64,000 bases of DNA, from the NCBI GenBank assembly GCA_001724245.1, contig MEDX01000016.1:1-64000 (forward strand), in the 5' to 3' direction. Shown one piece after another: positions 1 to 64,000 of this stretch (position 1 is the stretch's first letter; each line of letters opens with the position of its first letter). The notes under the pieces are model-generated. The model saw nothing but the letters and a program-made list of their open reading frames with translations, did not search any database and had not been told where the DNA came from. Position numbers and translations under genes: made by a program. The stretch comes from Fonticula-like sp. SCN 57-25 (taxonomy: Eukaryota).

Positions 1-1990
1 TATTTGCATGAGCTTAACAAGACCAACCCTCAGGCCGTCATCAAGCGATTTGAGAGCGGTCACTTTGCGTCAAACGATGCCTGCGCTCGCGAGTATCTGA
101 TCGCTCTGTCAAAGTCAAACAGGATCCCCGAGCTGGATGCCGCAGGTACGTTGGTCCACTATTTCCTGCTTTTTGTACTCACAACTGTTGTTAGCTCTGG
201 AAGCGCTAAAGGCTGGCTCGTCAAAATCATTAGCGACCGGTGTGGCTCGCAGCGGCACGCTGCAGGAGCCCATCCACGTCGTCATGCAGGAAGCAGGTAC
301 GGCCTCCCTTTCTAGTATAAGCAGATCTCTTACAATTGTTTTACAGGATTCAAGAGCCAATTGTGGCGCGGCGCGCGCAGCCTTATTATGGTGTTTATTG
401 TTGTGACGGGCATTTCCGTGCTTCTCGAGGAGAAGGGGATGCCGCGCGGGCTGAATTCCCCGACCGAGTTTGAGCAGCCCGCCGGCGGCCAGACTCAGCG
501 CTTTGCGGATGTGCAGGGCGTTGACGAGGCCAAGGCGGAGCTGGAGGAGGTTGTTGCGTTCCTGCAGGACCCGGCCAAGTTCACTCGCCTCGGCGGCAAG
601 CTGCCGCGCGGCGTGCTCCTGACAGGGCCGCCCGGTACCGGCAAGACCATGCTTGCTCGCGCGGTCGCGGGCGAGGCCAATGTGTCTTTCCTGTACGCCA
701 GCGGATCCGAGTTTGACGAGATGTACGTCGGCGTCGGCGCGCGTCGCATCCGCGAGCTCTTTGGTACGCCCCCGCGTGTTTGCATAAACGCGTCGCTAAC
801 GTGAGGACTCAATTTGTAGCGGCTGCCAAGCGCAGCGCCCCCTGCATTGTGTTCATTGATGAGATCGACGCTGTTGGAAGCTCGCGGGGCCCGCACCACA
901 ACCAGCACGTCAAGATGACGCTCAACCAGCTGCTCGTCGAGATGGACGGGTACGCACGCGAAATATTTGACTTTTAATGTTTTTCTGACTTTCTTTCCAT
1001 AGTTTCTCTGCCAGCGAGGGTATCATTGTGATGGCCGCGACCAACTATGCCGAGTCGCTTGACAAGGCGCTTGTTCGCCCCGGCCGCTTTGACCGCCACG
1101 TTGTTGTTCCCCCGCCGGACGTCCGCGGCCGCCGTCAGATTCTGGATGTTCACACGCGCAAGGTCCCTCTTTCCACCGAGGTTGATCTTGACGTGATTGC
1201 GCGCGGCACGCCCGGCTTCACCGGCGCCGAGCTTGCGAACCTGATCAACCAGGCCGCGGTCAAGGCGTCGATGGAGGGCGCCGCCAAGGTGGCGATGCGC
1301 CATCTGGAGCATGCCAAGGACCGCATCATCATGGGCGCTGAGCGCCGCTCTGCGGTGATTGAAGAGTCGAACCGCCGCATCGTGGCCTTCCACGAGGGCG
1401 GGCACGCGCTCGTCGCCGTGCTGACGCCCGGTGCGCTGCCGGTACACAAGGCGACCATCATGCCTCGCGGGTCGGCGCTCGGAATGGTCGCGCAGCTGCC
1501 CGAAAAGGACGAGCTTTCGTGGACGCGCAAGCAGCTGCTGGCGCGCCTCGACGTCGCGATGGCGGGCCGCGCGGCCGAGGAGCTTATCTTTGGCGACGAG
1601 AATGTGACGAGCGGCGCGTCGAGTGACCTCGACGCCGCCTCGCGCATCGCCCACGTGATGGTGACGCGCTACGGCATGTCGCCCAAGGTCGGGCCGGTCT
1701 CGGTGACGGACGACGACCTGAAGCACTTGAGCCCCGAGACGCGCCGCGTCATTGAGGAGGAGGAGCGCCGCCTGCTGGAAGAGTCCAAGGCTCGCGCCAC
1801 GAAAACGCTGCAGGACAACTCGGACAAGCTGCACAAGCTCGCCCAGGCGCTCCTCGAGTACGAGACGCTCACAAAGGACGAGATCGAGCTCGTGTTGAAA
1901 AATATGCCGCTCGGGCGCGCTCCGATGCCGGTCGTTCGCATGCCGCAGGCGGACGTTGTCGCCCCAACGCCAGTTGTCGCGACGGCTTAG
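1..1990 (+). CDS. YME1: ATP-dependent zinc metalloprotease YME1/FtsH (mitochondrial i-AAA); 5'-partial, 4 introns (about 146-194, 297-346, 764-819, 949-1002)
   Basis: Walker A GPPGTGKT, Walker [21 protein letters not shown], peptidase M41 HEGGH and GASSDL. GT-AG introns join the ORF fragments. Confidence 0.95.
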
Positions 1991-2242
1991 ACGGCGCATG
2001 GCCAGGTGTTTGATTGACAATTGGTTCATTTTTGCTTGAAATCGTGTATCTCCCTTTCCTTATATCGTCTCCATTTTGCGTAGTGCTTATGATTCATTTC
2101 GCGCCATAGTCCGCGCCCCTTTATTGATTGTGCATTTAAACCCCATTCACAATAGAATGATGTATACTCTGTTTATTGGCAACTCGCGAAAGATTTATCA
2201 GCTAAAACTACACATAAACAACACATTAACAGACTATGGTAC

Positions 2243-61700: not shown

Positions 61701-64000
61701 GCCCCAAGCCGCTGTCGCCGCCGCCCAGTGTATCTAGCGGACCCGATGATCAATTGGAGGCGCCGGCCGCCTACGCCGACATGCTTGAGCTCGTGTGCAC
61801 ACAGGAGCTGATCCGCACCGCTGTTGGCGTGATGGTGGGCGTTGTCGCCAAGGACCGCGCGGCCGCCAGCGCGCTCGTCAAGCAGATCTTTGTAAAGTCG
61901 GACTGGTCGTTGCGTAGCACCATTTGCCATGTTTTGTGGTCGCTCCTTCCCAGCCTCCCCGCGTATGGGCCGCACTGCAGCGAGTTTGTTCAGCTGCTCG
62001 GCCAGCTCTTTTTGTTCATGAAGCAGGGTACGGATGCTGATACTTTCTTCTTTGTCTTGCTAAAATCCGCTTTAGCGCCGACTAGGTTTGATCCCGATAA
62101 TGCTCATCTTGGAACGCTTGTCGAGGTTCTGGCCAAGCACAACCGGGCGATTGTGGGCCACGCCAACAGCGCGCTGTACGAGGGGCTCGAGCAGCACATG
62201 TCCATTGACGGCTACTTTTTGGAGAGCGGCGCCTGCTCTGGTTGCTTTGTGCACGAGCCTCAGCCGGCCGTCGTGGACCTGTCCGCGCCTCGCATTGAGT
62301 GCAAGTACTATGACAGCGCCACGATGATTCGCTTCCCGCACCGCCTGACGTTCTCGAGCTTTACCATGAACATCTCCGGGGTGCTGTCCACTCGCACGGT
62401 TCGCAAGGTCAACCTCTACTTTTCAAACAAGAGGGCGACCGACCCCAACGACCTGAAGAACTATGCCGAGACGTGGTCAAAGTGCGGAAGCGCGACGCTC
62501 TCGCGGACCCAGGTCAAGGTCACGATTGATTTTGAGATTCCCGTGACGGCCACCATGCTCGTCGTTGAGTTTTGGTCGTACTACGAGACGGGGTCGGAGG
62601 AATCGCTTCTCTGCCCGCGGTGCAACCGGCTGGTCACCGACCGCCACGGCATCTGCCGCAACTGCCACGAGAACGCCTTCCAGTGCCGCGCCTGCCGCAA
62701 CATCAACTATGAGAACCTGCAGGGCTTTTTGTGCATCGACTGCGGTTTCTGCAAGTATGGCAAGTTTTCGTACTCTGTGAACGGGTGGCCGAGCGACGAC
62801 GTCGACCGCGTCGAGACGGACCAGGATGAGAAGCAGTGCCTCGCGGTGATTGAGGCCGAGTCGCAAAAGGCGCGTGATACTGCACAGCGTCTGCAGCGCC
62901 TGCGCCGCCCGATAGAGCGCGTGCTCGCCGGCACGTCGCGCGAGTCCGTCTCGGTGACCGAGGCGACGGACCCCCCCACGACCCACTCGTTGAACCGCAA
63001 GGTCGTGTTGCTCTCGCAGCTGTACAACCGCGAGGCGCGCTCGTCGTTCATTGCGCTGTCAAAGTCTGTGCGCGTGTTGGCATCTGGCCGCCGCGAGATT
63101 CTCGCCTTCCATCTTGGCCGCTCGACGTCAACGGCCGCGGCGCCAGTCAAGGACCCGTCGCGCACCTGCTACGGTTGCCTTAGAAAGTATGTCCATGCGC
63201 TCGTTGCGCTGCTCGGGGACATTGCGCAGGCGGACCACGGCCACGCGGCGTTCCTTGTGGACCGCGACATCATCCAGGAGCTGCTGACGTACAATGTGCG
63301 TCGCGGCTCGGCGCCGATCGACCCGGTCGTGGCGCTCTTCTCGGCGCTTGTGGAGGACAACGAAAGCGCGACGCAGGTCTTCCTCGACGCGGTCACCTCC
63401 AGCATCCGCATCGGGCTGCAGCAGGCGTCGAGCATTGACCTCGGCGAGCTTGTGGGCTACGAGGTCGCGCTGCTGTGCAAGCTCGCGCTCATAGACGACG
63501 CCCTCTGGGAGATGCGCCTCAAGCACGTCTTCCGGCTGTTCTTTACGGCTCTGCCGCTCTGCAACGAGCAACCGGTCGTGCTCGAGCGCCTGGTCCTGCC
63601 GTGCCTCGCCGTGATCATTCAGCGGAGCACGCTGGACAAGGACGCGGCGGCCACTGCGACTGATGCGCCGTCGTTAACCCCGGCGTCGTTCCCCGCGTGG
63701 ATGTCGCAGGACGACACGTACGCGAGCTGGCTGGCGCGCCGCGCCGCCCAGGCTTCCTTTGGCGGGTCGATGCGAGAAGCCGAGCTTGTTGCCAAGTACT
63801 ATTGCAGGTGGCTCTTTACCGTCCGCGCTCGCCGCCGCCGCCTCAGTGGCGCGTCTGCCACGCCCGACGACATGTCTGCGCCGTCATCGCGCTGGCTGGG
63901 CCAGCTTTTGCTCACGCCATTGTCCAAGACGGTTCGCGAGCAGGCGGCCAAGCTCATTGCCGGCCTCGCTTCGTCGTCGCCATCTGTTGCCGTTCGCTTC
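52758..64000 (+). CDS. UBR4: E3 ubiquitin ligase UBR4 / p600 / BIG; 3'-partial, about 7 introns in the window
   Basis: UBR box CTFEATGSEFVDQHWYCCYTC...CHKGHDVTY...FFCDCG (about 56718-56905), ZZ finger (about 59955-60080) and the UBR4-type CPRCNRLV...GICRNCHENAFQCRACRNINYE...FLCIDCGFCKY (about 62610-62760). Confidence 0.95.

Follow-up and report, generated by a model that had tools for sequence, protein, structure and literature searches.

A near-uniform C at position +4 of the predicted 5′ splice sites in a gene-dense 64-kb stretch of a Fonticula-like eukaryote

The first 64,000 nucleotides of contig MEDX01000016.1 from Fonticula-like sp. SCN 57-25, in the following referred to as the window, contain tightly packed eukaryotic genes on both strands and zero N, with a G+C content between 55 and 64% per 4 kb. 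Here, we describe the introns of these genes, placed throughout by computational inference from a hidden Markov model (HMM), homologues and the reading frame. They are U2-type introns with the lineage-level 5′ splice-site consensus N/GURCGY (the slash marks the exon-intron border), in which A and G are about equally frequent at position +3, C occupies position +4 in about 95% and G position +5 in about 98% of the donors, and position +6 is C or U.

Genes and donor sites of the window

The final set comprises 30 gene models, two of which are tiny and probably spurious, and none contains an internal stop codon. About 78% of the bases are coding according to the first-stage HMM described below, and the intron density is about 3.6 per gene. 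Gene names derive from Pfam matches to single exons, which revealed a YME1/FtsH-type AAA protease, a retinoblastoma-like protein, TAP42, a bZIP factor, a fatty-acid desaturase, a large FYVE protein, a PRMT, an ECT2-like RhoGEF, MGMT, a COMM-domain protein, a SET/MYND protein, a DHH phosphoesterase, a PP2C-like protein, a deaminase, an SLC35F transporter, two alpha/beta hydrolases, an SH3-WW-FCH protein, a VWA protein, two glyoxalase-fold paralogues and a UBR4-like giant. None of the scanned exons of the window matched METTL16 or SNRNP27K, a result confined to these 64 kb and not extending to the rest of the genome. In addition, a UBL5/Hub1 gene with three introns (33454-33842, minus strand) was recognised through its similarity to solved structures. 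Its product comprises 73 residues, the same as the solved human UBL5 chain, and we noticed nothing unusual in it. Hub1 affects which 5′ splice sites are used.

The original prediction held that nearly all of about 100 introns in the window begin with GTRCG (R is A or G), and none with GTAAG or GTGAG. All 17 coordinates it had named indeed carry the motif given for them. By itself this is weak proof, since both GTACG and GTGCG are frequent in this CpG-rich DNA, together accounting for 441 of the 7038 GT sites on both strands (6.3%). Therefore, a motif-free hidden Markov gene finder was built, in which a GT donor and an AG acceptor were the only splice signals (GT-only HMM). Its states comprised a three-periodic third-order coding model, a third-order intron model, an intergenic model and the corresponding set for the opposite strand, with a minimum intron length of about 35 nucleotides. 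Training began with 19 long open reading frames for the coding model and a flat, T-rich guess for the intron model, followed by four rounds of self-training. Since the T-rich intron model also covers positions +3 to +6 and disfavours C and G at them, GTRCG is penalised in this set-up. The GT/AG ends are imposed by the model, which does not permit GC-AG donors, and hence are not independent evidence. A crude score for the GC/T transition around GT sites did not discriminate and was superseded by the HMM.

In the first pass of the GT-only HMM, 53 of 99 introns began with GTACG or GTGCG, and after self-training GTRCG was present at 76 of 102 donors (binomial p 9e-69 against the 6.3% background). 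Position +4 of these 102 donors was C in 82, T in 14, G in 5 and A in a single case, which proved to be a miscall 4 nucleotides downstream of a GTACG. Likewise, 12 of the 26 calls other than GTRCG have a GTRCG at most 30 nucleotides upstream or at most 35 nucleotides downstream, and several miscalls of the first pass lie 2 to 16 nucleotides from one.

In a second stage, weights for the donor (-3 to +6) and the acceptor learned from the first stage were added (signal-weighted HMM). This model yielded 108 introns (Table 1), 97 of them with GTRCG, a motif-guided count that represents an upper estimate, and retained 83 of the 102 first-stage donors. The donors comprise GTACG (49), GTGCG (48), GTTCG (4), GTATG (3) and one each of GTGTG, GTTTG, GTACA and GTGCT. 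G is found at position -1 in 56 of 108 cases; position +3 is A in 53, G in 50 and T in 5, position +4 is C in 103 and T in 5 with neither A nor G, position +5 is G in 106, and position +6 is C in 49, T in 37, A in 14 and G in 8. The commonest donor hexamer is GTGCGC (25/108). In line with the original prediction, none of the 141 GT[AG]AG sites on both strands coincides with a predicted exon-intron border, and the claimed absence of A at +4 holds for all 108 donors. Six of the seven exceptions to GTRCG named previously were recovered (15090, 22960, 32863, 34300, 42336 and 58125), but the seventh, GTGCCT at 25201, is more likely replaced by GTACG at 25182. Further donors deviating from GTRCG are found on the minus strand at 36235 and 41149 (GTTCG) and at 45708 (GTATG).

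The sense exons contain 130 unspliced GTRCG pentamers versus 97 used as donors. Hence, GTRCG is necessary but not sufficient for an intron. On its own it is a poor discriminator in CpG-rich coding DNA, and short-intron definition together with the branch site must supply much of the specificity. Gene finders trained on GTAAG and GTGAG would misplace many of these introns, so that species-specific splice models are needed for annotation.

Table 1. Introns of the window as placed by the signal-weighted HMM. The fifth column compares the donor with that called by the GT-only HMM.
Coordinates	Strand	Length (nt)	Donor	GT-only donor	Remarks
146-194	+	49	GTACG	same	
297-346	+	50	GTACG	same	
764-819	+	56	GTACG	same	YME1 homologues fix donor to the residue
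950-1014	+	65	GTACG	same	YME1 homologues: donor fixed, acceptor 1002
4126-4396	+	271	GTACG	same	
8495-8541	-	47	GTACG	same	
9001-9056	-	56	GTGCG	same	
9074-9164	-	91	GTACG	differs	
12207-12253	-	47	GTACG	same	
12387-12433	-	47	GTACG	same	
12552-12598	-	47	GTGCG	same	
12842-12887	-	46	GTACG	same	
13305-13350	-	46	GTGCG	same	
13453-13500	-	48	GTGCG	differs	
13831-13880	+	50	GTGCG	same	
14223-14284	+	62	GTGCG	same	
14381-14423	+	43	GTACG	differs	
14617-14671	+	55	GTGCG	same	
14809-14854	+	46	GTGCG	same	
14938-14982	+	45	GTACG	same	
15090-15133	+	44	GTGTG	same	
15273-15360	+	88	GTACG	same	
15950-15992	+	43	GTACG	same	
16694-16738	-	45	GTGCG	same	
17148-17196	-	49	GTACG	same	
17345-17396	-	52	GTGCG	same	
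18099-18151	+	53	GTGCG	same	
18468-18518	+	51	GTGCG	same	
19236-19288	+	53	GTGCG	same	
21128-21180	-	53	GTGCG	differs	
21222-21288	-	67	GTGCG	differs	
21669-21714	+	46	GTGCG	differs	
22624-22680	+	57	GTACG	differs	
22960-23010	+	51	GTTCG	differs	
23306-23369	+	64	GTGCG	same	
23732-23776	+	45	GTGCG	same	
23835-23879	+	45	GTGCG	same	
24386-24431	+	46	GTGCG	same	
24939-24981	+	43	GTACG	same	
25182-25235	+	54	GTACG	differs	in place of GTGCCT at 25201
25631-25677	+	47	GTGCG	same	
25996-26046	+	51	GTACG	differs	
26428-26474	+	47	GTACG	same	
26589-26636	+	48	GTGCG	same	
26804-26849	+	46	GTGCG	same	
28749-28801	+	53	GTACG	same	
28944-29016	+	73	GTGCG	same	
29041-29095	+	55	GTACG	same	
29759-29919	+	161	GTACG	same	
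30076-30125	+	50	GTACG	same	
30190-30233	+	44	GTGCG	same	
30518-30654	+	137	GTGCG	same	
31008-31145	+	138	GTGCG	same	
31178-31244	+	67	GTTTG	same	doubtful intron; GC-rich, AAG end, adjoins C7 run
31504-31564	+	61	GTGCG	same	
32161-32205	+	45	GTACG	same	
32336-32384	+	49	GTGCG	differs	
32559-32601	+	43	GTGCG	same	SLC35F homologues continuous
32863-32911	+	49	GTATG	same	SLC35F P0181 continuous
32965-33016	+	52	GTGCG	same	SLC35F P0181 continuous
33498-33551	-	54	GTGCG	same	UBL5 73 residues kept
33590-33635	-	46	GTACG	same	UBL5 73 residues kept
33720-33780	-	61	GTACG	differs	fixed by PDB UBL5 alignment
34015-34061	+	47	GTACG	differs	
34103-34146	+	44	GTACG	differs	
34234-34269	+	36	GTACG	differs	
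34300-34377	+	78	GTTCG	differs	
34506-34553	+	48	GTGCG	same	
34860-34903	+	44	GTACG	same	
35086-35130	+	45	GTGCG	same	Pfam Abhydrolase_3 79 to 81
35346-35406	+	61	GTGCG	differs	
35863-35908	-	46	GTACG	same	
36014-36057	-	44	GTACG	same	
36178-36235	-	58	GTTCG	same	
37141-37186	+	46	GTACG	same	
37332-37380	+	49	GTACG	same	
37768-37825	+	58	GTACG	same	
38356-38402	-	47	GTACG	same	
38605-38647	-	43	GTACG	same	
38823-38867	-	45	GTGCG	same	
39470-39845	-	376	GTGCT	differs	doubtful intron; may be intergenic gap
40313-40365	-	53	GTGCG	same	
40593-40649	-	57	GTGCG	differs	multiple of 3, no stop, could be exon
41100-41149	-	50	GTTCG	same	
41288-41334	-	47	GTGCG	same	
42336-42381	+	46	GTACA	same	
43325-43370	-	46	GTGCG	same	Pfam PRMT_C 112 to 116
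45278-45348	-	71	GTGCG	same	
45455-45502	-	48	GTGCG	same	
45662-45708	-	47	GTATG	same	
45784-45830	-	47	GTGCG	same	
46063-46109	-	47	GTACG	same	
46185-46236	-	52	GTACG	same	
46356-46408	-	53	GTACG	same	
47964-48009	-	46	GTGCG	same	
48348-48402	-	55	GTACG	same	
48536-48584	-	49	GTACG	differs	
49250-49295	+	46	GTACG	differs	
49426-49471	+	46	GTGCG	same	Pfam VWA 29 to 37
50043-50092	+	50	GTACG	same	
53569-53612	+	44	GTGCG	differs	
54741-54793	+	53	GTACG	same	
55495-55541	+	47	GTGCG	differs	
57663-57706	+	44	GTACG	same	
58125-58166	+	42	GTATG	differs	
58579-58614	+	36	GTGCG	differs	multiple of 3, no stop, could be exon
58749-58793	+	45	GTACG	same	
62028-62075	+	48	GTACG	same	

Eleven junctions are supported by homologues, solved structures or Pfam profiles, ten of them with GTRCG and one with GTATG. 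Since the latter, at 32863, is among the supported junctions, at least one of the exceptions is real. Alignments with YME1 homologues are gap-free across the donors at 764 and 950 and place the second acceptor at 1002 rather than 1014. In UBL5, residues 4-19 of exon 1 align with residues 2-17 of 6ahd_A0, a solved chain of 73 residues, and residues 1-27 of exon 2 with its residues 20-46. Continuity between the two exons, provided by the last codon of exon 1 and the split codon, is only obtained with the GTACG donor at 33780, not with GTGCT at 33765, which had been chosen by the first-stage HMM. The remaining exons add 27 residues to give a total of 73, consistent with the donors at 33635 and 33551. 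Moreover, Pfam profiles proceed from position 79 to 81 (Abhydrolase_3), from 112 to 116 (PRMT_C) and from 29 to 37 (VWA) across the introns at 35086, 43370 and 49426, respectively. Four full-length SLC35F homologues are continuous across 32559, and for one of these four, P0181, the same holds at 32863 and 32965.

Properties of the introns and relatives of the genes

The introns are short, with a median length of 48 and a mean of 58.5 nucleotides (range 36-376), and 88 of the 108 fall within 40-59 nucleotides. The acceptors are CAG in 54, TAG in 50 and AAG in 4 cases. The branch motif CTNAY is present 7-30 nucleotides before the acceptor in 85 of 108 introns, compared with a mean of 20.0 and a maximum of 32 in 200 shuffles; the variant YTRAY is found in 67 of 108 (shuffled mean 19). 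The branch motif played no part in the first-pass HMM. If retained, 94 of the 108 introns would disrupt the reading frame or introduce a stop codon, whereas the remaining 14 would leave the frame unbroken. Thus, the U2-type assignment stands on the branch motif and on the open frame and homologue continuity after intron removal, in addition to the imposed GT/AG ends. The U12-type donor motif ([AG]TATCCTT) occurs at 6928 on the plus strand and at 41432 and 54699 on the minus strand; none of these hits lies at a predicted intron, and that at 41432 is in-frame coding sequence, which speaks against introns of the U12 type among the calls. An all-against-all blastn comparison of the 108 introns, covering the possibility of an introner or transposon-derived family, returned only two pairs, of 12 and 17 nucleotides.

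Several individual introns deserve comment. Those at 40593-40649 and 58579-58614 belong to the 14 frame-neutral ones, lack a clear branch motif and may be exon. The segment 31178-31244 (plus strand) is the only model that keeps the frame of the large FYVE gene at this point; GC-rich, 67 nucleotides long, ending in AAG and with seven consecutive C at 31223-31229, it resembles an intron less than it does a homopolymer frameshift, a fault of the assembly or an incorrect model. The longest call, 39470-39845, may be a gap between two genes. Within 31008-31145 (plus strand), one of the few long introns, an 11-nucleotide unit is repeated 4.6 times at 31052-31101. The intron beginning at 950 has two in-frame acceptors 12 nucleotides apart, TAG at 1002, which the homologues favour, and CAG at 1014, which may constitute an alternative acceptor pair. 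In addition, the 5′ leader of the Rb-like gene (start codon at 3486, plus strand) contains a GTACG at 3140 that follows AAG and precedes a T-rich stretch, with an AG at 3481-3482; this may represent an intron in the 5′ untranslated region with the same donor type.

As to the relatives of the window, the closest YME1 homologue is 70% identical, and in a tree of 32 rows the YME1 protein of the window sits on a long branch of unresolved position that belongs to none of the fungal, animal, green and red clades. Mamiellales proteins were not found within the best 120 YME1 matches. A protein search with the 633-residue FYVE exon returned matches to the FYVE domain only and no orthologue. For TAP42, nothing closer than 33% was found in the protein search beyond the window's own open reading frame (100%), and a search of genome contigs and metagenome contigs yielded no related locus. 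The last exon of the SLC35F gene (33019-33360, plus strand) has a relative in the 92-residue fragment P0153, which is 60% identical and encoded on a 2.5-kb contig of a Logan assembly; it may stem from an organism that is related and shares this exon structure. Two adjacent intron-less genes on the minus strand (50887-51399 and 51992-52534) encode proteins of the glyoxalase/bleomycin-resistance fold that are 72% identical, and their sequences identify the pair as a tandem duplication.

Readings of the C at position +4

Position +4 of the donor faces position 5 of U1 and later the METTL16-methylated adenosine of the U6 ACAGA box (PMC10581693, PMC11732430), and in Saccharomycotina a switch from A to U at +4 is accompanied by loss of METTL16 and SNRNP27K (Parker et al. 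2023, PMC10581693). The background given in the original prediction agrees with the accessible text of this paper. Word searches of the accessible text of PMC10581693 and of the 2025 review PMC11732430, which treat A versus U only, returned no mention of C at +4, and literature searches by motif brought up primers and unrelated papers but none in which a GTRCG splice consensus is named. The single literature source on +4C lineages that we found is a preprint (bioRxiv 10.1101/2022.06.08.495308), the available part of which reports three of them: Mastigamoeba balamuthi, with a clear preference for GUGCGC donors and a U1 candidate carrying ACGUAC; the apusomonad Thecamonas trahens, with C preferred at +4 and a standard U1; and five Mamiellales, with GYGCGY donors and a standard U1. 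The original prediction had presented +4C as a third solution. This solution is thus already reported, down to the guessed ACGUAC end of U1. The prediction had also taken +4C to point to a cause such as altered small nuclear RNAs (snRNAs; U1 or U6) or loss or change of METTL16/SNRNP27K. An alteration of snRNAs does not necessarily follow: because two of the +4C lineages have a standard U1, a near-fixed C at +4 does not by itself imply an altered snRNA.

Before the partner of this C is considered, it has to be asked whether the motif is read at all. A by-product of composition, CpG richness or one mobile introner family, ignored by the spliceosome, might be expected in a GC-rich and CpG-rich genome, where the 441 GTRCG sites are found everywhere. 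However, the intron bodies are T-rich (A 17.5, C 25, G 20.5, T 37%), and given this composition C at +4 in 103 of 108 donors has a p of ~3e-55 and the complete absence of A a p of ~1e-9. Hence, as already argued in the original prediction, G+C content is not the cause of +4C. Moreover, positions +7 to +12 show a general T/C richness only, without a comparable preference, and the introns share nothing beyond the signals, which renders this explanation highly improbable. The pattern could also have been created by the placement itself, by a reader's eye or by the HMM, considering that the 97 GTRCG donors come from a pass with learned donor weights and that 14 introns are frame-neutral. Yet the motif already emerged from the GT/AG-only pass despite an intron model that disfavours it, eleven junctions are fixed by homology, and several first-pass miscalls lie close to a GTRCG, one miscall being shown wrong by the UBL5 alignment. 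An artefact is therefore scarcely credible, and even taken together the non-functional and artefactual readings are very unlikely. GTRCG is a true signal of the splicing system and not the outcome of composition, gene-model bias or a repeated intron family.

As for its reader, we tentatively favour, short of calling it probable, a U1 of the Mastigamoeba balamuthi type, in which ACGUAC takes the place of ACUUAC at the 5′ end. The C at +4 would then be Watson-Crick paired with G at position 5 of U1, and GURCG would form five contiguous pairs (G-C, U-A, R-U, C-G, G-C), a duplex that would offset the weak consensus on the exon side. Paired in the canonical register, ACUUAC is mismatched at +4 with 108 of 108 donors, whereas with ACGUAC 101 of 108 would pair from +1 through +5 or +6. 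The mean predicted duplex energy, calculated with 11-nucleotide U1 ends, is -3.5 kcal/mol for the canonical and -8.6 kcal/mol for the variant end, which is the better one for 107 of 108 donors. Furthermore, all donors without C at +4 have U (5/5, or 4/4 without the doubtful 31178; p ~0.03 to 0.06 from intron composition). As C pairs with G, U wobbles, and A and G clash, U as the sole alternative fits a G partner, though as weak evidence. Several points weigh against a variant U1. The gain in duplex energy follows from the motif by construction and says nothing about the existence of the variant. An Rfam search of the 64-kb window returned nothing, whether at gathering score or with E values up to 1, and thus no snRNA. 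Two of the three known +4C lineages have a standard U1, and in the yeast candidates U1 ACUUACC and U6 ACAGA are invariant despite the switches between A and U at +4 (PMC10581693). In addition, C, the commonest base at +6 (49/108), pairs with neither the standard nor the Mastigamoeba U1, a change in U1 would leave the C at +4 opposite the A of the U6 ACAGA box unexplained, and the introns are computational predictions, the count of 97 GTRCG donors among 108 being that of a motif-guided pass.

Quite plausible too, if again not probable, is a canonical U1 with ACUUAC that tolerates the mismatch, the preference being set at the handover of the 5′ splice site to U6/U5. It could be set by U1C, LUC7, SNRNP27K or snRNA modification (N6-methyladenosine deposited on U6 by METTL16, pseudouridines in U1), and recognition would depend mainly on intron definition over about 48 nucleotides together with a strong branch site. 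The tight length distribution and the branch motif argue for it, as do the unspliced exonic pentamers, since the pentamer alone does not define an intron. Besides Thecamonas trahens and the Mamiellales, yeasts with 93% pyrimidine at +4 keep a standard U1 as well. However, A at +4 would give the best duplex with this U1, yet it is found in none of the 108 donors; only three contiguous pairs and an isolated pair at +5 are left, with +6 pairing in 37 of 108, and from the accessible text of PMC10581693 and PMC11732430 we infer that no U6 state is known to favour C over U opposite the ACAGA adenosine. A changed U6 ACAGAGA box with G opposite +4, alone or together with U1, would account for the same order of preference at +4 as the U1 variant, with C well ahead of U and both A and G absent, and the excess of C over U at +6 (49 versus 37 of 108) hints at a partner other than A. 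Nevertheless, the ACAGA box is 100% conserved in 240 species (PMC10581693) and is kept even in Entamoeba with its altered U1 (bioRxiv 10.1101/2022.06.08.495308), so that such a change is most unlikely, if somewhat less so than a by-product or an artefact. To return to the variant U1, a possibility that we put forward with more reserve is that an aerobic intron-rich lineage has independently acquired ACGUAC, perhaps along with an altered U6 ACAGAGA box or altered METTL16-dependent methylation of this box. It would be a convergent counterpart of Mastigamoeba and the second such case, the snRNA and thousands of introns having co-evolved towards a C-G pair at +4.

Comparison with known systems

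Few RNA sequences are known to be as conserved as the 5′ end of U1 and the ACAGAGA box of U6, so that genomes in which nearly all donors clash with them are natural experiments on the co-evolution of splice sites and snRNAs. The +4C lineages of the preprint show both outcomes, a compensated and a standard U1. A further lineage with 95% C at +4 and many introns per gene would help to decide whether compensation needs prior intron loss, and would also show what reads +4 when U1 does not.

The window resembles Mastigamoeba balamuthi in the C at +4, G or A at +3, the frequent C at +6 and GTGCGC as the commonest hexamer. Both are GC-rich and intron-rich, the Mastigamoeba genome having 60.7% G+C and 3.4 introns per gene (PMC8136499), compared with 55-64% and about 3.6 in the window. 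In contrast, A equals G at +3 in the window, its mean intron is 58.5 rather than 137 nucleotides long, and about 78% instead of 55% of the sequence is coding. Moreover, two products of the window, an oxygen-dependent fatty-acid desaturase and a YME1-type mitochondrial protease, would not be expected in an anaerobe such as Mastigamoeba balamuthi. We therefore take the window to come from a different lineage, albeit perhaps a related one.

With Thecamonas trahens the window shares the preference for C at +4 in a compact genome, and there it occurs without a change in U1. The two are probably distinct organisms, because in the protein collection the single-exon reading frames of the window occur only among Logan and ENA entries, and spliced models of its genes are absent. 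The Mamiellales likewise combine C at +4, G at +5 and a pyrimidine at +6 with GC-rich compact genomes, but have G at +3, where the window has A or G, and can have C at +2, whereas the model of the window admits GT only. Entamoeba, with GUUUGU donors and a U1 carrying ACAAAC (bioRxiv 10.1101/2022.06.08.495308), likewise shows a lineage-wide rewritten donor, matched in its case by a rewritten U1 5′ end; unlike the window, it has U at +3 and +4 and is intron-poor and AT-rich. In Saccharomycotina, as here, +4 is the variable position, facing position 5 of U1 and the methylated A of U6, but the yeast switch is to U, in intron-poor genomes and with unchanged U1 and U6. With C preferred at +4 in 82 of 102 donors of the GT-only and in 103 of 108 of the signal-weighted HMM, the window is a further member of the little-studied +4C donor class already reported in the accessible text of the preprint.

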